A DNA stretch of 64,000 nt from Kiritimatiellia bacterium (GCA_045589455.1 JAZNPC010000010.1:149-64148); one strand, 5' to 3'; counted from the first letter of the stretch, positions 99-29,483 are shown. Notes: generated by a model not told the origin, from the sequence alone. Numbers and translations: made by a program.

Positions 99-1112
99 AT
101 GGCTGACATAGATTGGACAAAATTAGGCTTTGGTTATAGAGACACAAATTGTCATATTCGTTATACATGGAGAGACGGTAAGTGGGATAATGGCGAGCTT
201 GTGAAGGAGCCTTTTATCAATTTGCATATTGGTGCAGCATGCCTACACTACGGACAGGAAGCATTCGAGGGGATGAAGGCATTCCGTTGCAAGGACGGTA
301 AGGTGCGTATTTTTAGACCATTTGAAAATGCAAATCGTATGTTCCGTACAGCAAATCGTGCTTGCATGGCACCTGTTCCACCAGAGATGTTCGTTGATGC
401 AGTAAAGCGTGTAGTTCGAGCCAATGAAGAATTTGTTCCTCCATATGGTACAGGTGGCTCACTTTATATTCGCCCTCTATTGATTGGCTCTGGTATTCAG
501 ATTGGTGTTGCTCCTGCTAAGGAATACACATTTATCGTGATGGTAATGCCTGTTGGTGCATATTATAAGGGAGGTTTAAAGCCTGTCCGTGCAATTATTT
601 ATGATGAGTTCGATCGTGCAGCCCCTCTTGGAACTGGTGATATTAAGATTGGTGGCAACTATGCGGCAAGCCTTTATGCTCACGAAAAGGCAAAGGCAGC
701 TGGCTACCCAGTAGAGCTATACTTGGATTCAAAGAGCCATACATACGTAGAAGAGTTTGCTACATCAAACTTTTTGGGAATTAAGAAGGATGGAACTTAT
801 GTAACGCCAGATTCAACATCAGTATTGCCAAGTGTTACAAATCTAACACTAAAGCAGATTGCTGCCGACTCTGGGCGCAAGGTTGAGGTTCGCCCAATCC
901 CATTTACAGAGCTAGAAGATTTTGCTGAGATAGCAGCTTGTGGTACAGCTGTTGTTGTAACTCCAGTTTATGAGATAACACGCGGAGACAAGGTTATTAC
1001 ATTAGGTGATAGTGATTCTTGTGGTCCTGTTGTTCAGGAGTTATACGAAAAGGTACAAGCAATCCAGTATGGCGAAGCACCTGATATTTACGGTTGGTGC
1101 GAAGAAATTTAA
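99..1112 (+). CDS. ilvE: Branched-chain amino acid aminotransferase (class IV PLP enzyme)
   Basis: 337-aa ORF with full-length BCAT-like sequence (EGMKAFR, GGNYAASL, ACGTAVV segments). AAGGA Shine-Dalgarno lies just upstream of the ATG. Confidence 0.9.
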   Translation: MADIDWTKLGFGYRDTNCHIRYTWRDGKWDNGELVKEPFINLHIGAACLHYGQEAFEGMKAFRCKDGKVRIFRPFENANRMFRTANRACMAPVPPEMFVDAVKRVVRANEEFVPPYGTGGSLYIRPLLIGSGIQIGVAPAKEYTFIVMVMPVGAYYKGGLKPVRAIIYDEFDRAAPLGTGDIKIGGNYAASLYAHEKAKAAGYPVELYLDSKSHTYVEEFATSNFLGIKKDGTYVTPDSTSVLPSVTNLTLKQIAADSGRKVEVRPIPFTELEDFAEIAACGTAVVVTPVYEITRGDKVITLGDSDSCGPVVQELYEKVQAIQYGEAPDIYGWCEEI

Positions 1113-1189
1113 GTGCCAAGCTTTAACCTAAGATAATATATTTATTTCTTTACCCAGGAGGGTAGCGAAGCCACTCGGTGTTTCTAGGG

Positions 1190-2160
1190 AGAGAGACGCG
1201 AGACAATTAGACAGTGAAAAGCTAATTGTTGTTAGTCGCGTTGCTTATTGCTTTCGCCTAACACGGACACACATAGTGTGATTTTTACGGAGGACAATGG
1301 AGAATTGTACTAGCTTCCAATACTCCAAGAATCCCTCCGTGCCTCCTTACCTCTTTTTTCTCCGCGTTTCGCCGAAGGCTATAGCGAGAGCGCTTAAATA
1401 GTTGCACTTATTGCTTTCGCCTAACACGGAGGCTGGGGAGAACGGAGGCACGGAGAGGTTTGGGAAGATATTGGAGAAAGGGACTACAGCCCTTTGTGTG
1501 CTGACAGTATGACAGTTTGACAGAGCAGATGAGGGTGGCTTTGCCGCCCTAGACTCCCAACTGTCAAACTTTCCAACTCGCCCACTCGCAAACTGTCAAA
1601 CTTTCCAACACCTAAACAGTTCCATTTTTTTTGTATAGTTTGACAGTATGACAGTTTGATAGAGAAGATGAAGGTGGCTTTGCCGCCCTAGACCCCCAAC
1701 TGTCAAACTTTCCAACTCGCCCACTCGCAAACTGTCAAACTTTCCAAGCCTCAACACCTAAAAAGTTCCATTTTTTTATAGTTTGACAGTATGATAGTAT
1801 GACAGTTTGAGAGAGAAGATGAAGGTGGCTTTGCAGCCTCTCGCTTTCTCCCAAAACCCCATCACCCCTCCGTGCCTCCGTTCTCTTTATCCTCCGCGTT
1901 TCGCCGAAGGCTCAAGCGAGAGCGTTTAAATCGTTTCACTCATTGCTTTCGCCTAACACGGAGTACGGAGGTAAGGAGGAAAACTGCAAACAATAAAAAC
2001 CCCAGCAACTCTCCGTGTCTCCGTTCTCATGAAAATCACACTACGTGTGCTCCGCGTTTCGCCGAAGGCTATAGCGTCAGCTTGAAATCTGTCTTGTCGT
2101 CTAGCGTCTAACGTCACGATAGTCTTATCGTCTAATTGTCCTTGCGATAGTGCTTTAACA
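1190..2160. repeat. Mosaic of GC-rich intergenic repeat modules (left composite flanking the adhesin gene)
   Basis: Modules recur here and at 6561-7880 in the same order and orientation. Module A is 'tccgcgtttcgccgaaggct..agcgtttaaatcg..ttgctttcgcctaacacgga' (1361-1432, 1893-1963, partial 2049-2085). Module B is 'ggctggggagaacggag..tttgggaagatattggagaaaggg' (1431-1500). Module C is the 'tgacagtatgacagtttgacag...caactgtcaaactttccaac' units. ORFs in the track across this region are repeat-derived. Confidence 0.85.
1502..1850. repeat. Tandem array of a ~138-144-bp unit (about 2.3 copies) inside the mosaic
   Basis: Unit starts ('tgacagtatgacagttt') are at 1502, 1640 and 1784. Each unit contains TGACAG words and, downstream, their complements (ctgtcaaac), so it can fold into a long hairpin. 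It ends in a T7-8 run. Confidence 0.85.
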
Positions 2161-2359
2161 CCACGATTTAACATATTGCTTTTTCCCCCATGAGGGGGGC
2201 GACAATGACTCCGACTCTATAATGCTCTGTATTCTAGTTGCTTATCCAAGCACTTGTATGTGTTTAAGTGAAATTTCTTGACAAATATATGGTTGCTTAT
2301 GGTATTATTCAATCATAGTGAAATTTACTTTCTATATGATTATACTTGTGAGGTTAAAT

Positions 2360-5300
2360 ATGAAATTGTTAGAAAAATTTTTACTAGTTATACTTTGTTC
2401 CGTTAGTGTAATAACTCTTGCAGATACTACATATCGTGCTGGCTTACTCCAGAGTAAATTAAATCTTCAAAATAATGCAACTGGGGCTTTACCAACAGTA
2501 GACCTTGAACGCGTGCCTGGAACAGTAATGGCAAATATTTATGTCCCTAATGATAATGATGCTCCCAATGTTGGCTATTATAATGAATGGACTGGTAATA
2601 CAACATACTACAATACTCAAAATACGACCTTCGGTTATGCTGGACAAATGTGGTTTGTCAAAGATATCGAATATGTTTTTGGTAAGTATTTTGATGATTT
2701 CGGCTATGTGAAAATAGGTGATTCGGTAATCATTAACAACTCAAATTGGGAAGCTTTTGCTGTAGGTAATTTTACTCCAACTAGAACAGGATGGTATGAT
2801 GTAGAGTTTCGTGTTGGTGATGGAAATGGTGGTAAGGGCCCTAATGGTGGTGATTGGGGGCGCGATTTGGGTCTTGCTTGGAATACTAATGGTGTTACAA
2901 CTATGTCACCAAAGGATTCTTGGAATAAGATTGAAGACGATGGCTCAATGACATTTCTTCGCTGTATCACAGATGAAACCTTTGGAACACTAACTGATCT
3001 TAAACTAACAGATACAGGAGTTGATTTTTATATAACTGCTCCTGAAGTTTCAGATGTTTCTGCTACAATTTATTTTGGCTCAACAACGGGCATATTAGGC
3101 GATCCTTCCTCTTGGCAAAATGCATCCCAAACAGTAAATATTCCTGCTGGGGAAACGGGTGTCGTTGCCATTGAATGTACTGAAGGAGATTACCCTTTGT
3201 TTACAATATGTTGTTGTGGCGAATACAACGGAAATTTTGAACAATGGACTCCTGTTGTTTCCTCAGGAACATCTGCAACAGCTATTATTTCTGTAGCAGA
3301 TGTTCAATACACAAATGCAACTTGTGTGGTTACAATTGATAGCCTAGGAACTGGAGCAGAAATAGCAGATTTGTCTATAGAAATTAGTGAAACACCAGAT
3401 TTTGCTGGTGCTATACAATCAATTCCTTATGGTTCACAAATTTCAGATATTGGTCAATATTCTGTTGGGATTCCGAGCCTTTCAACTAATTGTATGTATT
3501 GGGCTCGTGCAGTTGTCGTAAATAATTTAGGTTCAACATTTCGTAGCAATCCAATCGATTTCAAGACTTTGTTGCCTGGTACACCTGTGTGTGGAATAGA
3601 GGCTCTTTCTAGAAGCTTTACTTCATTTACATTTGATCTGTCTGTCTCTGAATTTGGTGTAGGTGGAGAAAATGCAACAATTTCATTAGAGGTGTCAGAG
3701 ACAGAGGATTTCTCAGAAAAACTTACCTTTGGTGAAGCCTTTGTAACTAGTGCTCCTATAAAGAAATCAATTACGGCTACTAATTTGGACCCAGCTAAAA
3801 CCTATTATGTTCGAGGTAAGATTGTAAATTTCTGGGGAGTTGAGAATTTTTCTTTGACAGAAATTTTTTCCACAACAGATACTCCTGTAAAAATGTCTCA
3901 AATTTCATCAGTGTCTGGAGAAAATAATTCGGTTGTGCTCTCAATTAGTTCTATTGAGATGACTCCAGGCACAACCTATAATGTTGCATTCTATGTTGAC
4001 GGAAGGGTGATTGAAACTTTTGAGAATATGACTACACTTTCCTCTTTTTCTACAGAGTGGAGTGGTGCAAAAGGGTCTGAACATGAGTTAAAGATTGTTG
4101 TTGATTGCCTTTGGGGTGAAGAACAGTATTCTAATGAGTATTTGACAACCTTTATTGTTGGCTCATCAGTTGTCGGACTTGACTCAATCTCAAGCCTATC
4201 TACACAGGTATTGTTTGTTGGAGATAAAATAATGCTTCCAGAAGCAATAGGCACAGAGTTCTATAGCTGGAATACAAATTCAGTAATTAATGTTAATGGT
4301 AATGTTGTAAGTACATTAGAACCAGGCTGCAACATATTCAGACTTATAGCAAATGACAGTATAACAGGAGAAAGAACAGTAAAGGAAACTGGTATACTAA
4401 TTGTTGCTCCTGCACGAGAAACAATTAAAGGAGGTTTGTTCGTCCGTAGTGCTGATGGTAATTTTGATTGGAATAAGGCAGAGTCATGGGAGAGAATTTT
4501 AGGTACCAGCGACTATCCAAATAATCCAGACGATGTCGTTATGATTTATGGAGAGTTCTCTGGAGATAGAACAATCAATTTGAAGGAGGACATAACGATT
4601 GGATATTTGGGGGTAGGCGATTTGTCTACAAACAATAGAAAAGTAACACTTGGATCCTCTGGGTCACTAACGTTTAAAACCTCTGATGGAACAGCCTCGT
4701 GGATACGTTTGCCAGGAAAAATTAGTAATCCATGGATAGCATTTAATCGACCTGTTTCAATGGAGAATGATTTAGTTATTGATGGAATGTGTGGAGAAAG
4801 AATGCTTATTGATTTCTCGTCAACACTGACGGTTAATGAGTATCGTCTTTCCGCTACTCGTGTTGAGTGGTATGGTGGTGGGGCAGAATTTACTGATGGA
4901 CAATTTAGGCTTTATGGAGATGTTATTGGCTCTGGAATTATAGAAATTTATGCTAATACATTGATGACGCATAGAAATGTAAATACCAAATCATTCACAG
5001 GTATATGGAAAATTATGAATGGCCCTCATGATGGAAATTATGGTGGTGCAGGTCTATTTTTAGGTGGCACATATCTTTATAATGCAAAAGAATTGATAAT
5101 CGGCGGTGCATGGATGTCAAACAAAGAACGCCGTCTGGGTGCAAATGTTCAAACGGGTTGGCATAATGGATATCAATACGGAGCAATGACAAATGAGTGG
5201 AAAAATGTATTCCCTTCTCATGTTGTCATAGATGGAGGTAGGTTGCAGCTACTAAACGAAGGTCCTTTGGGCGGTGCTTCTTATAATGCGTATGTTGCAA

Positions 5301-6415
5301 CAGGTATTAGAGAGGATTATTTGGAAACAGATACATTGGAAATATCAAGTGGTCCAATGGGTAGCCTAGTCTCGAAGGTTGCAAAGCATCATCCTGGTAC
5401 ATATCCAAATGTAACTTCCACGATAACAAATCTTGTAGTAAGGAAGGGTGGTTCTGTTGCATTTGATATAAATACTATAGATAATGCTGGCTCTGCATAC
5501 CCTTTACTTACAAATTCAATGTATGTGGTTAATTCGCCAGAAGGTGTTTGGACTTCTCCCGATGGCTCCTATCAGGTGCTCCAATTCTTTAGCAAGAATA
5601 TTGAAGCAGAGACACATTATATTGCAATAAGAGATACTGCTACAGGAAAGATTAGCTTAACCAACTCCGTTACAACGAGGGGCTCATCGGGTAATTTCCG
5701 CGTTATTGATAAGTGGGACAATCCTAAAGAGGAAAGCTTCCCTGATGGGACAGAGTTTGTTTCCCTTTCTCTTTATCAAGAACGCAAGGTTGTTTTCTCT
5801 GAGCCAAATGCAACCATTAAGATTCTTTCTGGGTATTTGACAATGCCACATAATTCAGAATTTGGTAAATTGGATGATCCAAATACAGAAAGTGGAACTC
5901 TTGATTTTGGTGAAATAACTGGATATGTTTATTCAAGCTTCCAAAATAATTCTCCAGCAAAAATCGGGTGCAGAATTGTGGGCTCAAATGGATTGGTAAA
6001 ATCTGCTGGTGGAAAACTTGAATTATACCAACCATTGGATCAATTGTCTGGCGGTGTTTATGTAAATTGTGGTAGCCTAATTATGAAGAATGCCGCGACC
6101 TTTGGTGAAAATGATGTATATGTTTACGCAGGAGGAAAGGTAAGTATTTCTGGACAAAATCCGTTTAACACTAGAGCTACGCTTTATCTTGAAGAGCGTG
6201 ATTGGCTTCCTTGTTATAGTAAGCTTGATTTAGCAACAAGCGAGGAGGTAAAGGTTGGCAAGCTAATGGTAAATGGAACTTCTGTTCCTCGTGGTACTTA
6301 TGGTTCATCGCTCTCAAATGCAGAATTTGTAGATGACAATTTGTTTGAGGGTACAGGTGTAATAAAAGTATTAAGTGATGATTGCTTGCAACCAACTATT
6401 ATATTGATGAAGTAA
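2360..6415 (+). CDS. Large secreted surface/adhesin-like protein (signal peptide, PA14-like domain, Fn3/Ig-like repeats, beta-helix-type C-terminal half)
   Basis: ORF 2318-6415. I prefer the ATG at 2360 (GAGG upstream, then MKLLEKFLLVILCSVSVITLA signal-like N-terminus). There is a PA14-like stretch (GYVKIGDSVIINNSNWEAFAVGNFTPTRTGWYDVEFRVGDGNGG). Two ~100-aa repeats carry 'SETxDF...Y.(A/V)R..(V/I)VN' signatures. The C-terminal half has G/N-rich beta-strand repeats (GGKLELYQPLDQLSGGVYVNCGSLIMKN). Confidence 0.7.
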   Translation: MKLLEKFLLVILCSVSVITLADTTYRAGLLQSKLNLQNNATGALPTVDLERVPGTVMANIYVPNDNDAPNVGYYNEWTGNTTYYNTQNTTFGYAGQMWFVKDIEYVFGKYFDDFGYVKIGDSVIINNSNWEAFAVGNFTPTRTGWYDVEFRVGDGNGGKGPNGGDWGRDLGLAWNTNGVTTMSPKDSWNKIEDDGSMTFLRCITDETFGTLTDLKLTDTGVDFYITAPEVSDVSATIYFGSTTGILGDPSSWQNASQTVNIPAGETGVVAIECTEGDYPLFTICCCGEYNGNFEQWTPVVSSGTSATAIISVADVQYTNATCVVTIDSLGTGAEIADLSIEISETPDFAGAIQSIPYGSQISDIGQYSVGIPSLSTNCMYWARAVVVNNLGSTFRSNPIDFKTLLPGTPVCGIEALSRSFTSFTFDLSVSEFGVGGENATISLEVSETEDFSEKLTFGEAFVTSAPIKKSITATNLDPAKTYYVRGKIVNFWGVENFSLTEIFSTTDTPVKMSQISSVSGENNSVVLSISSIEMTPGTTYNVAFYVDGRVIETFENMTTLSSFSTEWSGAKGSEHELKIVVDCLWGEEQYSNEYLTTFIVGSSVVGLDSISSLSTQVLFVGDKIMLPEAIGTEFYSWNTNSVINVNGNVVSTLEPGCNIFRLIANDSITGERTVKETGILIVAPARETIKGGLFVRSADGNFDWNKAESWERILGTSDYPNNPDDVVMIYGEFSGDRTINLKEDITIGYLGVGDLSTNNRKVTLGSSGSLTFKTSDGTASWIRLPGKISNPWIAFNRPVSMENDLVIDGMCGERMLIDFSSTLTVNEYRLSATRVEWYGGGAEFTDGQFRLYGDVIGSGIIEIYANTLMTHRNVNTKSFTGIWKIMNGPHDGNYGGAGLFLGGTYLYNAKELIIGGAWMSNKERRLGANVQTGWHNGYQYGAMTNEWKNVFPSHVVIDGGRLQLLNEGPLGGASYNAYVATGIREDYLETDTLEISSGPMGSLVSKVAKHHPGTYPNVTSTITNLVVRKGGSVAFDINTIDNAGSAYPLLTNSMYVVNSPEGVWTSPDGSYQVLQFFSKNIEAETHYIAIRDTATGKISLTNSVTTRGSSGNFRVIDKWDNPKEESFPDGTEFVSLSLYQERKVVFSEPNATIKILSGYLTMPHNSEFGKLDDPNTESGTLDFGEITGYVYSSFQNNSPAKIGCRIVGSNGLVKSAGGKLELYQPLDQLSGGVYVNCGSLIMKNAATFGENDVYVYAGGKVSISGQNPFNTRATLYLEERDWLPCYSKLDLATSEEVKVGKLMVNGTSVPRGTYGSSLSNAEFVDDNLFEGTGVIKVLSDDCLQPTIILMK

Positions 6416-6515
6416 TAATCATATTATCCGTTTACAGCAAGCTAGTGCTATCGCACCAGAGCCGTAAACTAAACAGTGCTCTGCTTTTGCTATTGCAACT
6501 AGAGTGCCTCTCAAG

Positions 6516-6554
6516 GAGCCAATTCATTGACTGTGTCAGTTAATGAATTGGCTC
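6516..6554 (+). terminator. Stem-loop downstream of the adhesin gene (candidate intrinsic terminator)
   Basis: Perfect 13-bp inverted repeat gagccaattcatt / aatgaattggctc, followed by ttctcgtt, about 100 nt after the stop at 6415. Confidence 0.5.
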
Positions 6555-6560
6555 TTCTCG

Positions 6561-7880
6561 TTCCATGGGTGTCGGGTGATTGTCCTTGTGCTAGTGCTTT
6601 GTTGTGATGCGAGACTTTAGACGTTGAACGGACGCGAGACAATCAAACGTTGAAAGCTAATTGTCGTTAGTCGCGTTGCTTGTTGCTTTCGCCTAACACG
6701 GACACACATAGTGTGATTTTTACGGAGGACAAGGGAGCATTGTGCCAACAATCATTCCAGTACCCCAATCACCCCTCCGTGTCTCCGTTCCTCCAGAAAA
6801 CCACACTACGTGTGCTCCGTGTTTCGCCGATGGCTCAAGCGAGAGCGTTTAAATCGTTACACTTGTTGCTTACGCTCAACACGGAGTACGGAGGTAAATG
6901 GAGTACTATACTAACAATCATTATAATAACCCCAGCACCTCTCCGTGTCTCCGTTCTCTTAATCCTCCGCGTTTCGCCGAAGGCCACAGCGGGAGCGTTT
7001 AAATCGTTGCACTCGTTGCTTTCGCCTAACACGGAGACGCGGAGGCGCGGACAAAAGTGCTAGCAATCATTAACAACAACCCCATAACTCCCTCCGTGCC
7101 TCTGAGCCTCTTAATCCTCCGCGTTTCGCCGAAGGCTAGAGCGGGAGCGTTTAAATCGTTTCACTCATTGCTTACGCCTAACACGGAGGCTGGGGAGAAC
7201 GGAGACGCGGAGAGGTTTGGGAAGATATTGGAGAAAGGGGCTACAGCCCTTTGCGTGCTGACAGTATGACAGTTGGAGAGTGAAGATGAGGGTGGCTTGC
7301 CGCCCTAGACCCCCAACTGTCAAACTTTCCAACTCGCCCACTCGCAAACTGTCAAACTTTCCAACACCTAAACAGTTCCATTTTTTTATAGTTTGACAGT
7401 TTGACAGTATGATAGTATGACAGTTAGATAGTTGGAGAGAGAAGATGAAGGTGGCTTTGCCTCCTCTCGCTTTCTCCCCAAACCCCAGCACCTCTCCGTG
7501 TCTCCGTTCCTCCAGAAAACCACACTACGTGTGCTCCGCGTTTCGCCGAAGGCTAGAGCGCCAGCGACAAATCACTCAGCTGCGTACCCATCATCCGTGC
7601 AAATTTGTGCAAATTCGTGTTCGCGCCGCAGGCCTGAGCGTCAGCGTTTAAATCGTTGCACTCGTTGCTTTCGCTCAACACGGAGTACGGAGAAAAGGGC
7701 GCATTGTGCTAATCGTTTCACTCGTTGCTTTCGCTTAACACGGACACACATAGTGTGATTTTTACGGAGGTAAGGAGAATTGTGCTAGCAATCATTCCAA
7801 TACCCCAGAATATTCTCCGTGCCTCTGAGCCTCTTAATCCTCCGCGTTTCGCCGAAGGCTCAAGCGAGAGCGTTTAAATC
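6561..7880. repeat. Mosaic of GC-rich intergenic repeat modules (right composite flanking the adhesin gene)
   Basis: Same module set and order as 1190-2160. Module A copies lie at 6815-6886, 6965-7036 and 7117-7186, with partial or variant copies at 7535-7560, 7617-7690, 7700-7770 and 7841-7880. Module B is at 7189-7257. Module C units run 7258-7480. Confidence 0.85.
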
Positions 7881-8012
7881 AATCCTATCTGTGTTTCTGC
7901 GGGAGATAATATTGCGAAGCTCATTGTTATACAGAGTTGTTGACATACTATAATTTAAAGTGGTAACATATTGCCATATTCAATGTTAGATAGTTTTTTA
8001 AGGAAAGAAATT

Positions 8013-10397
8013 ATGAAAAAATTTATATTCTTGATTCTACTTGCTGTGGCAACGTGTTCTTTTGGCGCTTGGAGATATGTTGAAGATCCAGGCAAATGGA
8101 ATAATGCTGGCGATAAATCATATACCGGTTATATCACCGACGATACTACTTGGACTATCTACGTTCTTCAGCTATCTGATGGTACATGGCAGCTAGGTGC
8201 AGGTACATTTGGTGTTGACTATGGCTCTGGAGGTGGTTCTTGTAATGCAGGCAGACCAAGTGGTTCTTTAGAATCAAACCAAAAAACAGACACTGGTATA
8301 GGTTCTGGAGTCTTGGACCTTTGTGAGGCTTTTGACGATTTGCCAGATATGCAATTTACAGCAATCGGTCCTAGATGCTTCTATAATCATAAGCAAATTA
8401 CAGGAATTGTTATTCCTGCAGAAATTAAGGTGCTTAAAACCAGCGCATTTCAAGGCAGTTCTTTGACAAGTATAACATTTGAGGCAGGTTCTCAATTAAC
8501 AACTATTCAGGATTCTGTATTTAGAAGCGCACAAAGCATAAAGATACTTAATCTAAAGGACACAAAATTGGAAAGCATTGGATCTGGTTGCTTTGATGCT
8601 GCATTAGGTTTTAGAGAAATCTCTTTACCAAGCACCTTAACAACTCTTTCAAGCAGTGCTTTCTCTTACATTACAGACTCTGATATGGTATATCATTTCG
8701 CTGGTTCTATTCCAACAAGTATTGGCAGCTCTGCATTTCGTCCTAGAAGCTTAAGTGAAAAAATCAAATGGGCTTTTTACGTTGATGTAAATACAAAAGG
8801 AACTTGGCCAATCAGAACTGATGTTGCATTTGCAGATGCAACTCTTCCTATGGTAGATGGCGTTACTTTTGCCGAAGAAGATTATCTTGGTTATTTGTAT
8901 TTGTCAGATTTGCCTGGCAATAATATTAACAGCCCACAAAAGGTTTGGATATTTAAAGAAGGCGTATTAAGTGCTATAGTTCCTCCTTCTATCTCTGCAA
9001 TTACTCAGACAGGAAGAAAAGATGTTTCCATCGATTTGGCATTGGATATGGGAACTGCAGATGTAGCATCAATGGAAGTAACTCTGAATGATACAACAAT
9101 CACAAAAGAAGGAACAGAAGACGGTACTTACGATTTTTATTTTGATGAACTTTCCCTTGAAACAACATATTCATGGGTTGCAATTCTTAAGGATGCAAAT
9201 GGTGATATTGTTCAACAAATTGTTGGTTCAGCAACAACTCTTCCTCCAGATATTTCTCTAGGTAAAACTTCATATACACAGCCAGCTGATGGTCTTTCAG
9301 CAACTGTATATGTTGAGATTGTTGAATTAAAAGGAGAGTCAGCTGAGATTGCTTTTACCTTTGATGGGAATGACGCCGTGACACAAACAGTTACATCGGC
9401 AGGAAAATATGGTTTTGATGTTACCAATTTGACTTTAGGTGAAAAATATAATTATTCATTTGTGGTTACATCTTCTCAAAATTCAGATGTCGCTTCTATT
9501 AATGGTGTGCTTGAAGCAGATTATTATCATTGGGTTTATACTGCTGCACCGGCAGGAAGTATCCGTAATGGTATGCCATATACAGGTGAACTAACTGATA
9601 GAAATTGGCGTTTATATATCTATTGCCCAGACCCAGAGAAGCCAGATGAGTTTTGGCTAGGCTGTGGTGGTGCAGGAACGTCTGCCACAGACGCAAATGG
9701 TAGAGGTGCTCTTGATCTTACTGCTGTCTATGCTGATACGTTAGCAGCGGGCACACCTGTAAAGATTATAGATGTCAATAGCTTTGCATTTGTAAGTAAT
9801 CAAAATCTTGAGAAGCTTGTCTTGCCTCGATTCACTCAGAATATTAGATCATATACTTTTTATGGATGTAGATCGCTAACAAGTGTTGATTTGTCTAAGA
9901 CACAAATTACTAATATTTCTGCTCGTGCTTTCCAAGATAACTATGGCTGTACAGAGTACTACTTGCCTAGAACATTGGTTAGTGTTGGAGCATGTGCATT
10001 TGCATGGGGTCCAGCCAAGCGTGCAATTCATTTCTTGGGAGATGTCCCAACTGTTGAAATTACAACACAGGCTACAGGTACTGGTAATGTAGGTGGCGAT
10101 CAGTCTTTCTATTCTGGTAATAATAATAATCAATGGGCTTATTGTGTTGATGCAAAGACATATCCACGTTGGAAGACAGATGCGTCCACAATTCTTTATA
10201 CTGATGAGAATCCTTTCCCTGCTGCTAGTGAGCAGACATGGATCCCTGAGAGTGTTCAATATGGCAAAGTGGATGGTTATGCAAAGCCATTTGGTAATTC
10301 TACACTTGGGCGTGGTTGGGATTCCTCTGCATTTGGTCGTGCATATTTGATTCAAGAGAATTACTATAATCCAGCAACAGTATTGATGATATTTTAA
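8013..10397 (+). CDS. BspA-type leucine-rich-repeat surface protein (two LRR blocks separated by Ig-like repeats)
   Basis: ORF 7971-10397. I prefer the ATG at 8013 (AAGGAAAG upstream; MKKFIFLILLAVATCSFGAW signal peptide). LRR_5-like segments are present (AFQGSSLTSITFEAGSQLTTIQDSVF; YTFYGCRSLTSVDLSKTQITNISARAF). Confidence 0.7.
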   Translation: MKKFIFLILLAVATCSFGAWRYVEDPGKWNNAGDKSYTGYITDDTTWTIYVLQLSDGTWQLGAGTFGVDYGSGGGSCNAGRPSGSLESNQKTDTGIGSGVLDLCEAFDDLPDMQFTAIGPRCFYNHKQITGIVIPAEIKVLKTSAFQGSSLTSITFEAGSQLTTIQDSVFRSAQSIKILNLKDTKLESIGSGCFDAALGFREISLPSTLTTLSSSAFSYITDSDMVYHFAGSIPTSIGSSAFRPRSLSEKIKWAFYVDVNTKGTWPIRTDVAFADATLPMVDGVTFAEEDYLGYLYLSDLPGNNINSPQKVWIFKEGVLSAIVPPSISAITQTGRKDVSIDLALDMGTADVASMEVTLNDTTITKEGTEDGTYDFYFDELSLETTYSWVAILKDANGDIVQQIVGSATTLPPDISLGKTSYTQPADGLSATVYVEIVELKGESAEIAFTFDGNDAVTQTVTSAGKYGFDVTNLTLGEKYNYSFVVTSSQNSDVASINGVLEADYYHWVYTAAPAGSIRNGMPYTGELTDRNWRLYIYCPDPEKPDEFWLGCGGAGTSATDANGRGALDLTAVYADTLAAGTPVKIIDVNSFAFVSNQNLEKLVLPRFTQNIRSYTFYGCRSLTSVDLSKTQITNISARAFQDNYGCTEYYLPRTLVSVGACAFAWGPAKRAIHFLGDVPTVEITTQATGTGNVGGDQSFYSGNNNNQWAYCVDAKTYPRWKTDASTILYTDENPFPAASEQTWIPESVQYGKVDGYAKPFGNSTLGRGWDSSAFGRAYLIQENYYNPATVLMIF

Positions 10398-10526: not shown

Positions 10527-10906
10527 TATTGCTTTATATACACCTACATACGCTATTGTGTCACCAGCACCACAATATAATCCACACAGGGCATTGCATT
10601 CTCTTAACACAGAGATGGTTGTAATTGCATTTGTGTAATTAAGTTATCCGTGTAAGTCATTCGTGTATGCACATTAGTGCAGTAAAACAGGATTAACAGG
10701 ATTGCTTGCGTTATAGCTTGAAGTGCGAGATTTTGTAATGTTTGGGGTTAGTCAGTGCTATCGCTTCAGGACTGAGCTATTCCGCTATATATTCCCTTAG
10801 TCTTTTAGAAAAATCGGTTGACTGCGGGGTGAGGGTATGGTAGAATCAAATGTGTTTTTTGCTAGTGTAAAGCAAAATGCTAATTTTTTCTAAAAAAGGA
10901 TTATAT

Positions 10907-12232
10907 ATGAAAACAAAGCTTGTAAAATTTATGTTTCTAATTAGTTGTTGTTGTCTAATGCCTACTCTATATGCAGCATGGACCCAGGATGGCTCCACTG
11001 CAACGGATGGAAATTGGATTTTAAGAATTGATACTAGTGATGGTGTTGTTAAAATTTTAGGGCCAAATGCTGGCTCAGGTGTTCTTGATATATCAACTAT
11101 CGCGAATGACTTGGGTTGCACTGGCGTGATTGTTGGAAATGAAGCTTTTATTGATAATAAAAATGTTACTGGATTGGTTCTCCCAGAAGACCTCATAGAG
11201 CTTTGTGATGGTGCATTTGAACGTTGCACAAATTTAGCTGGCGAGATCAGTACTACAGCAGCCTTCAAAATGTCTGGATATAATGCGTTTGATCGAACAG
11301 CAATTACCTCAGCTATCTTCCCGAATATGACAGGCTCTGTTGGTGCATGGGCATTTTATGAGTGTAAGCAACTAAAAACCGTTGTTCTTGGAGATGGGAT
11401 AACTTCTTTTGGAGAAAAAGCATTTTTCAGTTGTTCTGCACTTGAGTCTGTTTTGCCTAATACTTTGCAAAATGTTACTTTTATTGCTAACGAAGTATTC
11501 AAATATTGTTATGCATTAAAAAGTAGTATGTTTCTACCTAATGTTCGAGAAGTTAAATCTTTAGCATTTGAGGGTGTTGCTTGTGAAGAGATTTCTATGC
11601 CTTCTTGTACAAATATGGTGGGTGGTTGCTTTTATGGATCAAAGATTAAGAAAATTACTCATTCTCCTGATGTGCAGCTTAATGGAGATGTGTTCATTGG
11701 TTGTACTGAGTTAGAGGAGCTAGTTCCTGGAAAATTTAGGAATTTAAGTGTTATTCTAGATGGTACCTTTAAAAATTGCAATTCGCTAAAGAGTTTAGAT
11801 TTTACTGGTTGTACATTTACTTCTGTAAATATTAATTCAGCGCAGTATATGTATGAGATGAAGTATCTTGTGTTGCCAGAAACACTTACAGATATGGGAA
11901 ATTGGTCATTTGAGCGTATAAAGAATAGCGATGTTCTTTTCCGTGGCCCTAAACCAACAATTGGTGGCGGTAATGTTTTTGCTCATAATGGGAATAACCA
12001 AAAATTACGTAATAATATAATTTCTCTTGAAGAACATATTGCTTCATGGACAAATGCTAATTCTGGAGTAACTTTTACACCTCTAGCAAATGTCAGTGAT
12101 AATCAGAAGACAGATGACTATAAATATCCAACTACTAATATAGGGCGAGTTATTGGAACGGTTAACTTTGGTGCATCAACTCATTGGTTGTCTATTTTCA
12201 ATGAAATAGGCACAATTATATTTATAAGATAA
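10907..12232 (+). CDS. BspA-type leucine-rich-repeat surface protein
   Basis: ORF 10877-12232. I prefer the ATG at 10907 (MKTKLVKFMFLISCCCLMPTLYAAW signal-like). It contains repeated 'AF..C..L' LRR_5-like units and shares the N-terminal module with the 8013 gene. Confidence 0.7.
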   Translation: MKTKLVKFMFLISCCCLMPTLYAAWTQDGSTATDGNWILRIDTSDGVVKILGPNAGSGVLDISTIANDLGCTGVIVGNEAFIDNKNVTGLVLPEDLIELCDGAFERCTNLAGEISTTAAFKMSGYNAFDRTAITSAIFPNMTGSVGAWAFYECKQLKTVVLGDGITSFGEKAFFSCSALESVLPNTLQNVTFIANEVFKYCYALKSSMFLPNVREVKSLAFEGVACEEISMPSCTNMVGGCFYGSKIKKITHSPDVQLNGDVFIGCTELEELVPGKFRNLSVILDGTFKNCNSLKSLDFTGCTFTSVNINSAQYMYEMKYLVLPETLTDMGNWSFERIKNSDVLFRGPKPTIGGGNVFAHNGNNQKLRNNIISLEEHIASWTNANSGVTFTPLANVSDNQKTDDYKYPTTNIGRVIGTVNFGASTHWLSIFNEIGTIIFIR

Positions 12233-20904: not shown

Positions 20905-21015
20905 GCGCATCTCTATCTTCGGGAGAATCTCTCGTACTTCTAGCCATCCCACCCTCCCAAACTCCCAATATTCTTCAGACGAGAGCCAGCGTAGGATTAG
21001 CCGCCACGTGCATCA
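20905..21015. repeat. Copy of the dispersed GC-rich repeat family (reverse orientation)
   Basis: Contains 'agccagcgtaggattagcc' (20984-21002), the reverse complement of 'ggctaatcctacgctggct' at 24982 and 37192. It also contains 'acgtgcatcac' (reverse complement of 'gtgatgcacgt') and 'acttctagccatc'. Confidence 0.7.
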
Positions 21016-21067
21016 CATCAGTAGAATTAGTACCTAATTACTGAATTCAATACAGATAGGGTGAATA

Positions 21068-21138: not shown

Positions 21139-21190
21139 TATAGGAAAAATCCACATATAGGTGGCAATTAATAGTGATATCGGGGTAGAT

Positions 21191-22912
21191 ATGAAGAAAA
21201 AGGTAATTTTTGTTGCTTTGGTGATTGCAATTGCTGCAATTGGATTTGTTTTTTGGGGAAGAGAAAAAGCAAATCCACTTGAAAACGAGATTTTATATAC
21301 GGTTACTAATGGTCCGTTAGTTATTAATGTGACTGAAGCTGGTACAATTAAACCGCAAGAACAAATAATTTTAAAGAGTGCGGTTGAAGGCCGTAGGTCT
21401 ATTATTTATCTTATTCCAGAAGGTTCTTTTGTTAAAAAAGGTGATTTGCTTGTAGAGCTAGATGTTTCTGAGTTAGAAACAAAACGCGCAGACCAAGAAA
21501 TTATCGTTCAAAATGCTGAGACTGAGAAATTAATTAAGGCAGATGATCTAATTGTGGCTCAAAATCAAGCGAAGGCAGATATTGAGCTTGCAGAGCTAAA
21601 GGTACGCTTTGCTAGAGAAGATTTGCTTAAATATATTGAAGGTGAATATCCTAAAAACCTTTCAGAGGCAGAAGGAAGCATAAAGCTTGCTGAAGAAGAA
21701 TTAGAGCGTGCAAGAGATAAGATGGAATGGTCAAAAAGACTTTATGAAGAAAAATACCTTTCTGAAACAGAAATGCGTAGTGATGAGCTTTCTTGGAAGC
21801 GTGCAGAGCTAAATTTAAGAACAGCAAGAGGAAATTTAGATCTTTTACAGAATTACACCTATAAGCGTCAGGTTGCTCAGCTTGAGAGTGACCTTTCTCA
21901 AGCAGAAATGTCATTAGAGCGCACAAAGCGCAAAGCAAATGCAAGCGTAAGCTCTGCAGAAGCTACGCTTCGTGCAAAGGAGCTAGAGTATTCTCGCCAA
22001 CTTGAGCGATTAAAATATTATGAGAGACAAGTAGCTAATGCAAAAATTTATGCACCAATGGATGGTCTTGTAATATATGCTACAAGTGCAAATAATCGTT
22101 GGGGAAATAGAGAACCTTTATCCGAGGGTATTGAAGTCCACGAACGTAATGAGCTTATATATTTGCCAACAACAGCATCTTTTCAGGCAGAGATAGAGGT
22201 TCATGAAAGTAATTTAAGAAAGATAGTTCCTGGATTGCCTGTGCGAGTTCGTGTTGATGCAGTTGATAGAGCCTTTAATGGTGTTGTTTCTCAAGTATCT
22301 CCATTACCTGATGCCCAGAAGATGTGGCAAAATCCAGACCTCAAGGTTTATAAAACAATCATTAAGCTAGATGGAGGCGGGGATTTATTAAGATCTGGTA
22401 TGAATTGCGTTGCTGAAATCATTATTGAGCAATTTGTTGAAACACTTTATATTCCAATACAATGTGTTGTAATGGTAAATGGTGAAAGTGTTGTTTATGT
22501 TGTTGATTCTGAAGGAAATCTTGAGCAGAGAAAGGTTGAGCTTGGGCTAGATAATGGTCGTTTTGTTCAAGTAATTTCTGGACTTTCCGAGGGAGAAAGG
22601 GTTATGGAAAATCCTCCATTAGATGGTTCAGAGTCTGAAACAAGTAAAACCTTGGCCCATGAAGGAACTACACCTGTGAATGCTCCTAATGCTCCAATAG
22701 TGCCTGCATCTACAGCTATTCAAACACCTCCATCTCAAGCCACGCCTCAGCAAGAAGCAGCGGCACCAAATGCGAAGCCTACAGAACAAGCAAAGGCAGT
22801 AGAGGAGGCTGTTGAACAGCCTAGTGCTGCTTTAGATCAACCTATTGTGGAAGCACCTACAAATACAACTATTGAGGCAACTACTGTAGTAGCGACAGAT
22901 GTACAAGAATAG
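21191..22912 (+). CDS. Efflux periplasmic adaptor (HlyD/MacA family) with a long low-complexity C-terminal tail
   Basis: ORF 21161-22912. I prefer the ATG at 21191 (MKKKVIFVALVIAIAA anchor). It has a coiled-coil hairpin region and a beta-barrel region (IYAPMDGLVIY). The last ~90 aa are P/A/T/Q/E-rich. Confidence 0.8.
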   Translation: MKKKVIFVALVIAIAAIGFVFWGREKANPLENEILYTVTNGPLVINVTEAGTIKPQEQIILKSAVEGRRSIIYLIPEGSFVKKGDLLVELDVSELETKRADQEIIVQNAETEKLIKADDLIVAQNQAKADIELAELKVRFAREDLLKYIEGEYPKNLSEAEGSIKLAEEELERARDKMEWSKRLYEEKYLSETEMRSDELSWKRAELNLRTARGNLDLLQNYTYKRQVAQLESDLSQAEMSLERTKRKANASVSSAEATLRAKELEYSRQLERLKYYERQVANAKIYAPMDGLVIYATSANNRWGNREPLSEGIEVHERNELIYLPTTASFQAEIEVHESNLRKIVPGLPVRVRVDAVDRAFNGVVSQVSPLPDAQKMWQNPDLKVYKTIIKLDGGGDLLRSGMNCVAEIIIEQFVETLYIPIQCVVMVNGESVVYVVDSEGNLEQRKVELGLDNGRFVQVISGLSEGERVMENPPLDGSESETSKTLAHEGTTPVNAPNAPIVPASTAIQTPPSQATPQQEAAAPNAKPTEQAKAVEEAVEQPSAALDQPIVEAPTNTTIEATTVVATDVQE

Positions 22913-22915
22913 GCA

Positions 22916-23629
22916 ATGGAACAATCTACCATGATGAAAATAGATCCTTCGCGTACTTATGCTGTAAAGTTTGAAAATCTATCCAAGCATTATGATTTTG
23001 GTGGTCAGATTGTTCGCGCACTAGATGGAGTAACCGCTTGTTTTGAAAAGGGAAGCTTTTGGGCTATTATGGGTGCTAGCGGTTCTGGCAAAAGTACAAT
23101 GTTGAATATTCTAGGTTGCTTAGATAGACCTACAACAGGACAGTATTTCCTTGATGGGAAGGATGTTTCTAGATTAAATGATGATGATTTAAGTGATATT
23201 CGCTTAAATTACCTTGGATTTGTTTTTCAGAGTTTTAATTTGATTCCTCAATTGACTGTTGCAGAAAACATTGCTCTTCCTTTGTATTACAGGGGAGTTT
23301 CAGAGGAAGGGTGTTTAATTAAGGCAAAGGAAATGGCGGAGGTCGTGGGGCTCTCAAATCGATTAGAGCATAGACCAATGCAGCTTTCTGGTGGCCAACA
23401 GCAGCGTGTAGCAATTGCCCGAGCATTATCAACAGATCCAGTTGTTTTGCTTGCTGACGAGCCAACAGGCAACCTAGACTCTACCACAAGTGTAGAAATT
23501 ATGAAGCTTTTGGACGAAATGAACCGCTATGGTAAAACAGTAATTATGGTTACTCATGAGCCTGATATTGCTGAATTTGCACAGCATCGATTGATTATGA
23601 AGGATGGCAAAATAGATAGGATTAGTTAA
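22916..23629 (+). CDS. ABC transporter ATP-binding protein (MacB/LolD-type)
   Basis: Walker [10 protein letters not shown], signature [15 protein letters not shown], Walker [13 protein letters not shown]. Confidence 0.9.
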
Positions 23630-23630
23630 G

Positions 23631-24908
23631 ATGATTAATTTAAGCTATACTTCATTTAAGCGAAATGTTCGCCTAGGAATAAAGAATCTACTATTGCATA
23701 AGCTTCGCTCAATGCTGACGATGCTTGGCCTTGTTTTTGGTGTTGGTAGTGTTATTGCCATGTTAGCAATTGGTGAAGGAGCAAGTGAGGAGGCTCTAGA
23801 ACAAATCCGTATGCTAGGAAGTAAAAATATTATTATTACTTCAGTTAAGCCTGTAGAAGAAAATGCAAAACAAAATAATAATATCCGGCTCAGTGTTTAT
23901 GGATTGTTGTATAATGATTTTTATGCGATTAGTGAAACAATACCAACGGTTTCTTGTGTGGTGCCTGTAAAGGCCATGGAAAAGGTCGCAAGATATGAAG
24001 ATTCCTCAAGTAATTTAAGAATTGTTGGCACAACAAAGGATTGGTTTAAACTGGTTGATAGAGAAAAACTAATTGGCCGAGTTTTAACAGAGAATGATGT
24101 GGTAGAAAGCCGTTCTGTTGCTGTGTTAACGGAATCAGGAGTTCGTAAGCTATTGGCCAACGAAAATGCTGTAGGTGAATTTCTTCGAATTGGCGGAAAT
24201 TCGTATGAAATTGTTGGTGTTATTAAAACAGAAAAGCTAGCAGACTCTGGAATGCAAATGCCTGATAGAGAGGCAGATGTATATATACCAATATCAACAG
24301 TTCGACTACACTATGGAGATAGATATACTCAAAATAAGGAAGGCACTAGAATTAGTGAATTGGTTCAACTACACCAAATTATTGTTGAGGTAAGTGAAGA
24401 GAGTAAAGTAGAAGCAACTGCAAAAACTATAGAACGTTTGTTATCTATTTCACATTCTAAGAAGGATTATGAATTAAGTGTGCCATTGTCTTTGTTGCGC
24501 CAAGTAGAAGCCACTAAACGAACCTTTTCTATTGTATTGGGAGCCATTGCCGGAATTAGCCTTCTTGTAGGTGGTATTGGTATTATGAACATTATGCTTG
24601 CTACAGTTACAGAGCGCACTCGTGAAATCGGCATTCGAAGGGCAATTGGTGCAAAACGCAATCAAATTGTTATGCAATTTTTGATAGAAACACTTGTATT
24701 GTCAATTACTGGAGGTGTTATAGGTGTTTGTTTCGGTATTTTTATACCATATATGGTAACAATTTTTGCTGGCATGCCAACAGTTATAACAGTTTGGAAT
24801 TTAGTGCTATCGCTAGGAATAAGTACATTGACTGGTATTGTTTTTGGCCTTTATCCAGCAATTAGAGCCGCAAAGCTAGATCCAATTATCGCTTTGCGTC
24901 ATGAGTAG
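23631..24908 (+). CDS. ABC transporter permease (MacB/FtsX-type, 4 TM with periplasmic domain)
   Basis: 425 aa with an FtsX-like C-terminal region (GGIGIMNIMLATVTERTREIGIRRAIGA) and a LYPAIRAAKLDPIIALRHE end. Confidence 0.88.
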   Translation: MINLSYTSFKRNVRLGIKNLLLHKLRSMLTMLGLVFGVGSVIAMLAIGEGASEEALEQIRMLGSKNIIITSVKPVEENAKQNNNIRLSVYGLLYNDFYAISETIPTVSCVVPVKAMEKVARYEDSSSNLRIVGTTKDWFKLVDREKLIGRVLTENDVVESRSVAVLTESGVRKLLANENAVGEFLRIGGNSYEIVGVIKTEKLADSGMQMPDREADVYIPISTVRLHYGDRYTQNKEGTRISELVQLHQIIVEVSEESKVEATAKTIERLLSISHSKKDYELSVPLSLLRQVEATKRTFSIVLGAIAGISLLVGGIGIMNIMLATVTERTREIGIRRAIGAKRNQIVMQFLIETLVLSITGGVIGVCFGIFIPYMVTIFAGMPTVITVWNLVLSLGISTLTGIVFGLYPAIRAAKLDPIIALRHE

Positions 24909-24974
24909 CTTGGATAGCTATAAATTAGATAATTAGATTTTATATTTCTATCGGGGTGGCGTATGTGATGGCTA

Positions 24975-25340
24975 GGGCGACGGCTAATCCTACGCTGGCT
25001 CACGCGGAGACGCAGAGACGCAGAGCTAGCGTGATGCACGTGACGCCGAAGGGACGCAGAGACGCTGAGGGCGCGGAGGACGCGGGGCTGGTGTGATGGG
25101 TGTGGTGTTGGGGCGCGAATGCGCACATTACCGCTTGTTGTTGCCTTGTCTTATTGCGAAATCTAACGAAGCAATAAGGCAACTGCCAAGCGCTAATGTG
25201 TACGACCCACCAAGGCTTTTAAGACGAGGAGCGTGATGCACGTGATGGTGTTTTGGATGCACCAAGCTTGGTTGTGCGCTGCGCCGCGTGCGGCGCAGAG
25301 AACGCGCTTGTGTGATGGCTAGAAGTGCTAGTTTCAGCGG
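24975..25340. repeat. GC-rich repeat block including a ~200-bp element shared with 50301-50497
   Basis: 25025-25222 is near-identical to 50301-50497. It contains 'ggctaatcctacgctggct', 'gtgatgcacgtgacgccgaagggacgcagagacgc' and an internal hairpin cttattgc-N13-gcaataag (25150-25178). Confidence 0.85.
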
Positions 25341-28731: not shown

Positions 28732-29352
28732 ATGGAACTCGGAGCAATTAAAAATCTAGCCTATGAGCTAATTGGCAATAAGGAAGAAGTTCCTCACGGA
28801 GTGGGATACCGCCTTGCTCATGGTTATAGAGTTGGTGCAATTGCAGAATGGATTGCACATGAGCTAGGAGAGAGCGATGAGCTACTTTTTGTTGCTGGCA
28901 TACTTCATGACATTGGTAAGGATAAGGCAGGACATCCAGAGGATGATGGAATAATGCATGGTCCGCGCGGAGCCGAGATTATTCGCAAGCAATTTATTCA
29001 TTTTATGAGCATAAATGAGCTTCAAAGAGTTGCTACAATGGTTGAAAATCATAATGCTCGCCCCAAAAGTAAGTGGTTTATCGATAAAGAGAAGCCACAG
29101 CATTCAACTGAGGTCTTAATACTTCAGGATGCAGATTTGCTAGATCATTTTGGTGAAGAAGGCATAAATATTACACTTAATTGGGGACGTTTTTTCAAAA
29201 AAACTCGCGAACAAATCCTTAAGGAATGGAAATATGGTGAGAGAGTAGCTCGAATGCATGAAGAGGTGCGCCGCTCTCTTAATTTTGATGTGTCAGTTCG
29301 TGAGTTTGATCGACGCCTAAAAATCATGCAGGATTACTTTTTAAAATTTTGA
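28732..29352 (+). CDS. HD-domain phosphohydrolase
   Basis: H...HD motif (AGILHDIGK) and a downstream LQDADLLDHFG. Confidence 0.75.
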   Translation: MELGAIKNLAYELIGNKEEVPHGVGYRLAHGYRVGAIAEWIAHELGESDELLFVAGILHDIGKDKAGHPEDDGIMHGPRGAEIIRKQFIHFMSINELQRVATMVENHNARPKSKWFIDKEKPQHSTEVLILQDADLLDHFGEEGINITLNWGRFFKKTREQILKEWKYGERVARMHEEVRRSLNFDVSVREFDRRLKIMQDYFLKF

Positions 29353-29483
29353 TTTGTCAGTTTTAGGGTTTTAATTACGTATTAATACTATAGCAGGATT
29401 GTTTTGCTAAATTTTGATTTGTCAGTTTTGGGGTTTTAATTACGTATTAATACTATAGCAGGATTGTTTTGCTAAATTTTGAT
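29346..29483. repeat. 65-bp tandem duplication (2 full copies plus an 8-bp start of a third)
   Basis: 'attttgat' recurs at 29346, 29411 and 29476. The two units differ by 1-2 nt (ttttagggtt vs ttttggggtt). The first unit starts in the last codons and stop of the HD gene. Confidence 0.9.

Follow-up and report, generated by a model that had tools for sequence, protein, structure and literature searches.

Co-oriented repeat composites on both sides of a large protein gene in a Kiritimatiellia bacterium probably belong to a dispersed, lineage-specific mosaic repeat family

The BOX elements of Streptococcus pneumoniae are intergenic and non-autonomous, and they are organized as boxA-boxB(n)-boxC, with fixed end modules that pair into a long stem and a variable internal module; they are not known to have a transposase. 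In the Neisseria intergenic mosaic elements (NIMEs), the dRS3 repeat is the target of a phage integrase. NIMEs consist of RS units flanked by these 20-nt dRS3 repeats (PMC1797815, PMC3454330). The repetitive extragenic palindromic (REP) unit is an imperfect palindrome of 20-40 bp, one end of which has an unpaired GTAG or CGTC tag (PMC3733652), and bacterial interspersed mosaic elements (BIMEs) are described as regularly spaced palindromic units in alternating orientation with two kinds of conserved linker (PMC2817692). Here we report on a pair of repeat composites in a 64,000-nt stretch of a Kiritimatiellia bacterium (GCA_045589455.1, JAZNPC010000010.1:149-64148; hereafter the window) that lie on either side of a gene for a 1351-residue protein. 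We consider it likely that the spacers represent two local paralogs within a lineage-specific, non-coding mosaic repeat family that fills many long spacers in a small clade of ruminant-hindgut Kiritimatiellae. A full-text literature search returned no description of such repeats in Kiritimatiellae, and the family appears to be undescribed, though it resembles known bacterial mosaic repeats.

In the first 12 kb of the window, an ilvE-like class IV aminotransferase gene (99-1112) is followed by a 1.2-kb spacer, the open reading frame (ORF) of the 1351-residue protein (2360-6415) and a 1.55-kb spacer, and repeats fill both of the spacers around this ORF. The right composite is directly upstream of two consecutive genes for BspA-type leucine-rich-repeat surface proteins (7971-10397 and 10877-12232). 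An earlier note on this DNA had placed the composites at 1190-2160 and 6561-7880, which was essentially right, our k-mer census putting them at 1194-2144 and 6579-7880. The note also described flanks that agree in their modules and in how these are ordered and oriented, and this was borne out by blastn of one spacer against the other, which gave a co-linear chain on the plus strand only (1195-1431 with 6631-6886, 79% identity; 1332-1662 with 7089-7415, 91% over 331 nt; 1641-1924 with 7259-7566, 81%; 1997-2089 with 7480-7573, 89%). Each flank has the other as its best match, with 96% identity in a 91-nt stretch and 91% in a 331-nt stretch. Judged by their sequences, they are paralogous direct repeats.

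Two short cores recur throughout both composites. With up to three mismatches allowed, the 19-nt L core (TCCGCGTTTCGCCGAAGGC) was found eight times and the 20-nt R core (TTGCTTTCGCCTAACACGGA) nine times, all on the plus strand and all inside the two flanks; neither was present in 100 dinucleotide shuffles. The TGACAG/CTGTCA unit is likewise confined, within the window, to the flanks. Module copy number is unequal, as had been reported: one L-loop-R unit precedes the TGACAG block on the left and three do so on the right, where Tandem Repeats Finder (TRF) detected an array of these units with a period of 152 and 2.5 copies. The TGACAG unit of ~140 nt has ~2.4 copies in the left flank and ~1.5 in the right, near the earlier counts of 2.3 and 1.3, and two of its stretches in the left composite (1502-1608 and 1641-1747) are direct repeats of 96% identity. 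The ends of what had been called module A are indeed imperfect inverted repeats, but L and R are complementary at only ~14 of 19 positions. The ends of the left composite are themselves imperfect inverted repeats over ~115 nt, and arms of 46 nt that are 78% complementary occur among the inverted repeats of the flanks. Beyond 7553, the right composite holds extra, rearranged modules that have no counterpart on the left. The only ORFs that overlap the repeats are short and confined to them, so that the composites have the terminal inverted repeats and the lack of coding capacity of a miniature inverted-repeat transposable element (MITE).

The modules follow a grammar in which the inverted cores L and R alternate and are joined through two kinds of conserved linker. 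The first is the 31-nt loop of the A unit (…AGCG-NN-AGCGTTTAAATCGTT-N-CACT…); the second is a spacer of 70-80 nt that is itself a hairpin, with purine-rich ACGGAG words, a linker and pyrimidine-rich CTCCGT words. Optional extensions of the arms comprise the H mini-palindrome (CACACATAGTGTG with a T run 3' of R, and its complement 5' of L) and the CGTCT/AGACG arms, both of them symmetric, as well as the TGACAG units. All of the arms are repeats of short words with a period of 7-9 nt (TRF periods of 8 and 16, and direct reading), and at least five word types are in use (CTCCGTG, CGTCT, TGACAG, CGCAGAG and CCACCGTCCTGT). The long arms are E, with CGTCT words after L, and S, with AGACG words before R. 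Because intact hairpins of E, a loop designated loop' and S occur at three related loci (L005, L033 and L045), E (2070-2141) and S (1195-1247 and 6601-6682) are the left and right arms of one module; the left composite therefore opens with a right arm and closes with a left arm. The right composite opens at 6572-6600 with 29 nt from the end of a left arm and loop', a recurrence of 2128-2156 at 83% identity, and S follows. In the wider sample described below, the L core is invariably followed by GGC-N3-AGCG-N2-AGCG and then by one of three routes (96 L cores): the A loop and R in 26 copies, the X end (…ACAAATCA) in 39, and the E arm in ten. The X end is often the border with unique DNA or with another repeat family. 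The recurrent terminus, …GGC-N3-AGCG-N2-AGCGACAAAT, was seen in at least 39 copies, and at the simplest loci the L/X end is constant and the reach on the other side is variable. The features of the locus are as follows.

1195-1247, plus strand: S arm, the right arm of the CGTCT/AGACG-word hairpin, with AGACG-type words, at the left end of the left composite (sequence reading; intact E-loop-S in L005 and L033).
1248-1288, plus strand: R core (1248-1267), then the Hl mini-palindrome CACACATAGTGTG and T run (1268-1288; Hl scored as terminator-like).
1289-1360, plus strand: spacer hairpin of purine-rich ACGGAG words, linker and pyrimidine-rich CTCCGT words (sequence and folding).
1361-1430, plus strand: A unit with L core (1361-1379), conserved 31-nt loop and R core (1411-1430) (motif search and alignment).
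1431-1501, plus strand: P1' (GGCTGGGGAGAACGGAGGCACGGAGAGG) and module B (91% identical to 7188-7257).
1502-1850, plus strand: tandem TGACAG/CTGTCA units of 139 nt, 146 nt and a partial ~64 nt, ~2.4 copies (repeat comparison).
1851-2069, plus strand: C and P2, second A unit (L at 1893, R at 1943), spacer hairpin, Hr (2030-2050) and third L core (2051-2069) (motif search).
2070-2156, plus strand: E arm of CGTCT words (2070-2141) and loop' (TTGCGATAGTGCTTT, 2142-2156), the right end of the left composite (sequence and recurrence at 6572-6600).
2360-6415, plus strand: large secreted or surface protein of 1351 residues from the ATG at 2360, in an ORF that opens at the GTG at 2318 (ORF call).
6515-6560, plus strand: unique hairpin 3' of the stop codon (AGCCAATTCATT...AATGAATTGGCT), a possible terminator of the large gene (sequence reading; conserved in L094).
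6572-6682, plus strand: E-arm tail and loop' (6572-6600), then S arm (6601-6682), with an extra word block in S relative to L094 (sequence comparison).
6683-7187, plus strand: R, Hl, spacer and Hr, then three A units (L at 6816, 6966 and 7118; R at 6866, 7016 and 7168) with a period of ~152 nt (motif search and TRF).
7188-7470, plus strand: P1', module B and ~1.5 TGACAG units (blastn and repeat comparison).
7471-7577, plus strand: C and P2, Hr, L core (7535-7553) and X end (TAGAGCGCCAGCGACAAATCA), the commonest terminus of the family (at least 39 copies with the X end).
7578-7880, plus strand: rearranged tail with an L2-type unit (7610-7684), R (7725), Hl (7745), spacer, L (7841) and half an A loop to 7880 (motif search and blastn).

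The family is dispersed. A scan for the exact 19-mer of the L core in one genome per species (GTDB) returned 93 stretches, 45 of which share 60-500 nt of homology with the composites. These 45 loci derive from four metagenome-assembled genomes (MAGs), namely the Kiritimatiellae RGIG4692 (roe deer rectum), RGIG9845 (yak) and RGIG990 (cattle), and 'uncultured Verrucomicrobia' SRR6425821_bin.29. Together with the window, the related loci gave 372 kb of DNA, in which 96 L cores were found. The modules are thus not unique to this locus, and the earlier suggestion of a dispersed family is supported by the ~45 loci in four related MAGs. The window organism is close to RGIG4692; the ilvE products share 96% identity, and other segments compared as DNA share 94-96%. 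A family-specific pattern gave no hits in JGI metagenome contigs, and no family match was found in IMG/VR viral contigs, PLSDB plasmids or a phage collection. The bare 19-mer had 29 hits in the JGI contigs, all of them coding coincidences of the '…PRFAEG…' type.

ORF maps placed the repeats between long ORFs in every copy seen. Among the contig termini that fall within homologous loci, 30 of 37 stop inside repeats, by our tally. A Logan contig from another sample (L094, 97.8% identical) spans 2051-6711 of the window and breaks in repeats at both ends. Repeat orientation is nearly always uniform within one cluster and is random relative to genes: between co-oriented gene pairs, ~10 clusters run with the genes and ~12 against them. 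With respect to GC skew there is at most a weak bias: 13 clusters have L on the G-rich strand and 28 have it on the other (p = 0.03), in clusters that are non-independent and with a skew that is confounded with gene direction. In L005, which is from another species and has other gene neighbors, nucleotides 1-501 are co-linear with 1690-2153 of the window at 83% identity, over the order TGACAG unit-C-P2-L-A-R-spacer-Hr-L-E. This co-linear recurrence of at least 500 nt of the left composite indicated that whole composites had been copied, and not modules alone.

The 1351-residue protein had been called an adhesin. This label is unsupported; it was a guess about a protein that has no match in Pfam, NCBIfam or the PDB. 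Nor are the repeats tied to adhesin-like genes, since their neighbors elsewhere include fusA, gyrB, uxaC, and the genes of a GH2 mannosidase, a Na/Pi transporter and some large surface proteins. A protein 98% identical to the large protein is encoded on L094, and the contigs of its more distant homologues (27-36% identity) are free of the repeats. The association of the repeats with the supposed adhesin is, on this evidence of housekeeping neighbors and repeat-free homologues, incidental. Exact-protein look-ups found neither the ilvE product nor the BspA-like proteins of the window on record. On sequence reading, the unique hairpin at 6515-6560 is a possible terminator of the large gene.

Comparison of samples and of species supported the structural heterogeneity that the earlier note had predicted. 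Relative to L094, the S module of the window differs by a 27-nt indel of a word block. At orthologous spacers (uxaC, fusA and the L021/L033 pair), where the genes are ~85% identical, the repeats are unalignable or absent, and the DNA 3' of ilvE is unlike in three lineages; these spacers being unalignable, no insertion boundaries between empty and filled sites could be drawn. In the third lineage (Logan contig L127, 8289-8456; ilvE product 95% identical), the contig ends 168 nt past ilvE in repeats of the word ATGAAGCA, so that this assembly break is in another word type. In the window, the direct repeats of the flanks are 5.4-5.8 kb apart and extend over 90-330 nt at 88-96% identity, and we infer that their pattern is one that Campbell-type integration or local duplication would leave. 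Deletion or amplification of the large gene through the direct repeats of 331 nt and 91% identity is plausible from the sequence; no such junction was seen. Across the loci, dispersal of the modules, intergenic placement, orientation unbiased with respect to genes, variable copy number, turnover between species and breakage of short-read assemblies were all observed directly.

We propose that the modules would behave as selfish or neutral DNA, in the manner of BIME, NIME and BOX elements and of MITEs. They may spread through a trans-acting enzyme (none was found), through homologous recombination, or through both, and arrays would lengthen and shorten through slippage and unequal crossing-over. 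The large gene, lying between the composites, would be a bystander that may have arrived, or have been bracketed, by recombination between composites, and the direct repeats of the flanks would make it prone to RecA-mediated loss or duplication. Transcriptional side effects are possible, for example if the hairpins act as weak bidirectional barriers between genes.

Searches for a mobilizing enzyme were negative. Neither the window ORFs scanned nor ten repeat-adjacent ORFs at other loci included a transposase, integrase or invertase, and no transposase, including RAYT (a Y1 HUH transposase), was found among the ~50 ORFs scanned with Pfam and NCBIfam. The best E-value in tblastn of the 372 kb with IS200 TnpA and YafM was 0.17, in what was a weak test with approximate query sequences. 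Overall, neither RAYT nor an IS200/IS605 TnpA was found in the 372 kb sampled, which amounts to ~10% of each MAG. No target-site duplication was seen at repeat copies. A match to integron attC sites and gene cassettes was also considered and rejected, there being no integrase among the window ORFs scanned and the repeats lying between housekeeping genes in either orientation. Integron, inverton and iteron or origin readings were set aside because no recombinase or replication gene was found and the repeats lie between ordinary housekeeping genes.

Several observations weigh against the reading of the composites as a family of selfish or neutral repeats. Their mobility is deduced from distribution only, because no enzyme, target-site duplication or clean pair of empty and filled sites was found, and the MAGs were sampled solely around exact 19-mer hits. 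Of 90 copies, 42 had a nearest neighbor from their own genome (33 expected), and mean identity was equal within and between genomes, with no sign of a recent burst; as the copies are not grouped by genome, the module types seem to be older than these species. In an alignment of 23 copies, the loop of the A unit was conserved as much as its arms, which is unexpected for a pure hairpin element and could point to a sequence-specific function. Finally, of 42 clusters, 40 fold better on the strand opposite L when DNA parameters are used, and 35 do so under RNA parameters. This bias is in part one of base composition (the shuffle means for the two strands of the left composite differ by ~10 kcal/mol); it hints at a single-strand role, inherited shared mismatches may explain more of it, and we treat it as unexplained and not as evidence.

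A possible but unlikely alternative is that a host DNA-binding protein (nucleoid-associated, insulator-like or topological) recognizes the modules as arrays of its sites, in which case the words would be functional and the hairpins a by-product. All arms do consist of short words with a period of ~8 nt, the complementarity of the arms is at the level of words only, covariation is lacking and orientation is independent of transcription. REP and BIME elements bind IHF, gyrase and Pol I (PMC2817692). Such arrays would, however, call for several proteins or for one very tolerant protein, given the five or more word types. No candidate protein was identified, and the rapid turnover at orthologous sites is at odds with a position-specific function.

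We give a slightly lower chance, and regard as quite improbable, that the half-hairpins E...S, or the core of loop' (ATTGTCCTTGYGMTAGTGCTTT), are recombination sites and that the large gene is a mobile cassette held in a hairpin loop, comparable to attC or Xer/dif systems. In the window, E plus loop' (2070-2156) and the E tail, loop' and S (6572-6682) bracket the gene and contain the 29-nt direct repeat of 83% identity. The minus strand of L089 has the same relative order, with an E arm and half-loop (7740-7942) and a half-loop and S (3759-3865) around three genes (~3.9 kb); these genes are antisense to the repeats. In L006, E and a half-loop are followed by unique DNA and a gene, intact E-loop'-S hairpins exist in L005, L033 and L045, and words like RYYYAAC/GTTRRRY (GTCTAAC and GTTAGAC) are present in the arms. 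These words are a trivial consequence of the AGACG word composition, however, and two adjacent composites share an orientation by chance half of the time. The flanks are co-linear duplicates of a whole composite rather than the halves of one split site, and E and S match in word content and not base by base, complementarity within a copy being no better than that between copies. The absence of an integrase or recombinase among the window ORFs scanned and the mostly housekeeping neighbors, in place of cassette arrays, also argue against this explanation.

A broader version, which we rate as very improbable, holds that the inverted arrays of words (AGACG/CGTCT, ACGGAG/CTCCGT, TGACAG/CTGTCA and others) on either side of the conserved core TTTCGCCGAAGGC-N3-AGCG-N2-AGCG might be the recognition ends of an undescribed mobilization or recombination system, perhaps shared with Bacteroidota, that would insert or exchange whole genes in hairpin loops, with the E...S half-hairpins marking a captured cassette.

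That the composites are transcribed as structured RNAs, serving as 3'-end stabilizers, terminators or a large non-coding RNA, is likewise very doubtful. Folding is strong, and each composite is far more stable than its shuffles: as single-stranded DNA, the left composite gave -170.6 kcal/mol for the plus strand (z = -10.7 versus shuffles) and -190.7 kcal/mol for the minus strand (z = -13.8), with a single giant nested hairpin as the predicted fold. The H modules resemble small terminators of a hairpin and T run on both strands, the composites lie between a terminator-like hairpin and the promoter region of the next gene, and the preference for the strand opposite L holds with RNA parameters, as given above. 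Conservation of base pairing does not follow suit, in that RNAalifold of the 23 A-unit copies yielded a weak consensus of -13.8 kcal/mol with compensatory changes in only two of 24 pairs. Rfam 15 had no match in the whole window at the gathering threshold, and three chance-level hits only in 1100-8000 at E-values up to 5. The orientation is random with respect to flanking genes, and both content and length vary freely between loci.

Although invertons are common for surface genes in gut bacteria and 1195-2156 has long inverted repeats at both ends directly upstream of a large secreted protein, it is most improbable that the left composite is a phase-variable promoter whose ~115-nt inverted ends flip a 750-nt interior to switch the surface-protein gene, as no invertase was found nearby among the ORFs scanned, similar composites lie downstream of or between housekeeping genes elsewhere, a unique region that precedes the large gene (2157-2359) contains promoter-like hexamers of its own, and in L094, from another sample, the orientation is unchanged at the two junctions covered.

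Other long spacers of the window (24964-25248, 50250-50511, 30554-30810, 10599-10695 and 20936-21047) contain other modules from this word-built repertoire. A second dispersed, GC-rich family with words of the GACGCAGAG type is present at 24964-25248, 50250-50511, 30554-30654 (minus strand), 20936-21047 and 37186-37237; the first two of these are 94% identical, and 16 of the 45 related loci contain this family, often immediately 3' of the X end of an L module. A word-built hairpin at 30700-30810 has CCACCRTCCTGT 3.4 times facing AGTTTTAACGTAGGTGGA 2.9 times, and the same words are at the end of L031. An AT-rich 65-nt unit is repeated 2.2 times at 98% identity at 29344-29483, in the spacer upstream of the ORF at 29571-30422. 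The hexamer AGAGCC, repeated 17 times at 40989-41090, is a coding low-complexity linker inside a TonB/TolA-like ORF (40780-41559) and is not intergenic. Two paralogous MacB-type ABC efflux clusters (21161-24908, plus strand; 43822-48654, minus strand) each encode an HlyD-like adaptor, an ABC ATPase and a MacB/FtsX permease, the second with an outer-membrane factor in addition. The region 51600-61000 is an island of low GC content (25-34% versus ~40% elsewhere) whose products include two GTPases of the dynamin family (52249-56134), an ATPase of the HerA/DUF87 type (56642-59950) and a non-specific endonuclease (59943-60896); it has the look of a defense-type island gained by horizontal transfer.

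If the reading of the composites as members of a dispersed mosaic family is correct, it accounts for the unusually long intergenic spacers of these gut Kiritimatiellae, and the repeats mark breaks in gene order between relatives. The heavy fragmentation of the MAGs would also be explained, because contigs end in the repeats. The direct repeats of 90-330 nt offer a plausible route to gain, loss or duplication of the large gene, which would bear on surface variation in gut symbionts.

Compared with known systems, the mosaic organization of hairpin-forming modules with variable copy number, which the earlier note had likened to BIME/REP elements, is supported, whereas membership of BIME/REP proper is not. 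Like the BIMEs and REPs of Enterobacteria and Pseudomonas (as REPINs, mobilized by RAYT), the repeats are extragenic, multi-copy and lineage-specific, and, like BIMEs, they have alternating inverted units, two linker types, tandem amplification, a copy number that varies between loci and adjacent inverted units able to fold into larger hairpins (PMC2817692, PMC3733652, PMC3116915). The alternation of units, regular spacing and conserved linkers of a BIME are all found here, in L/R, the 31-nt A loop, the ~70-80-nt spacer and the period of 152 nt. However, units of 125-150 nt and composites of 1-1.3 kb are well above the 20-40 nt of REPs and the ~100-300 nt of BIMEs. The arms are repeats of 7-9-nt words, the loop is as conserved as the arms, and no GTAG or CGTC tag is in register. 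The only small palindromes are CACAC-NTA-GTGTG, with GTAG in the loop and not at the head, and GCC-GAA-GGC; CGTC occurs solely within the CGTCT words of the E arm. No RAYT or TnpA accompanies the units in the DNA sampled.

The likeness to NIMEs (dRS3/RS) and BOX elements (boxA/B/C) is one of architecture only, and no sequence relation to NIMEs is to be expected. NIMEs are, as here, kilobase-scale intergenic mosaics of 50-150-nt modules with a constant repeat of ~20 nt in between, and they too often adjoin surface-protein genes and are tied to rearrangement break points (PMC1797815, PMC3454330). They differ in that the ~20-nt cores here are an inverted pair, L/R, the neighbors are mostly housekeeping genes, and no integrase of the kind that targets dRS3 was seen. 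With BOX elements the family shares modular order, end modules that are fixed, an internal module whose copy number varies, pairing ends and intergenic location. BOX elements are, however, ~100-400 nt long with three module types, whereas more than ten module types, nested palindromes and word-repeat arms are found here.

MITEs such as the Correia elements are, like these repeats, non-coding, dispersed, intergenic and assembly-breaking, with long terminal inverted repeats (TIRs), and the E/S and P1/P2 arms recall the eukaryotic foldback elements, the inverted terminal repeats of which are made of short tandem repeats. Unlike MITEs, the family has one defined end only (…AGCGACAAAT) and forms arrays and recombinant mosaics rather than discrete insertions, and no target-site duplication, parent insertion sequence or empty-site evidence was seen. 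A MITE of 200-330 nt in Saprospiraceae and Lewinellaceae MAGs (Saprospirales) has the identical 19-mer, TCCGCGTTTCGCCGAAGGC, in multiple copies within its TIR (L003, L007, L014, L025, L027, L034, L036, L055, L060, L062, L069, L072, L081, L087 and L091). This palindromic element contains a TTCGCC-GAA-GGCGAA hairpin flanked by direct ATCCGCG words. Ten ORFs adjoining its copies were ordinary genes with no transposase among them, and no parent insertion sequence with a transposase adjoined either these Bacteroidota copies or the Kiritimatiellae copies examined. The word-plus-hairpin build shared by two phyla could, on the sequences at hand, reflect common descent, convergence or chance. Only the word-repeat arms and the 19-mer in common with the Bacteroidota MITE might point to a new mechanism, and these arms, the conserved loop and the cross-phylum 19-mer merit a second look. 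Alongside BIMEs, NIMEs, BOX elements and MITEs, the family would add the repeats of a little-studied phylum to the bacterial mosaic repeats.

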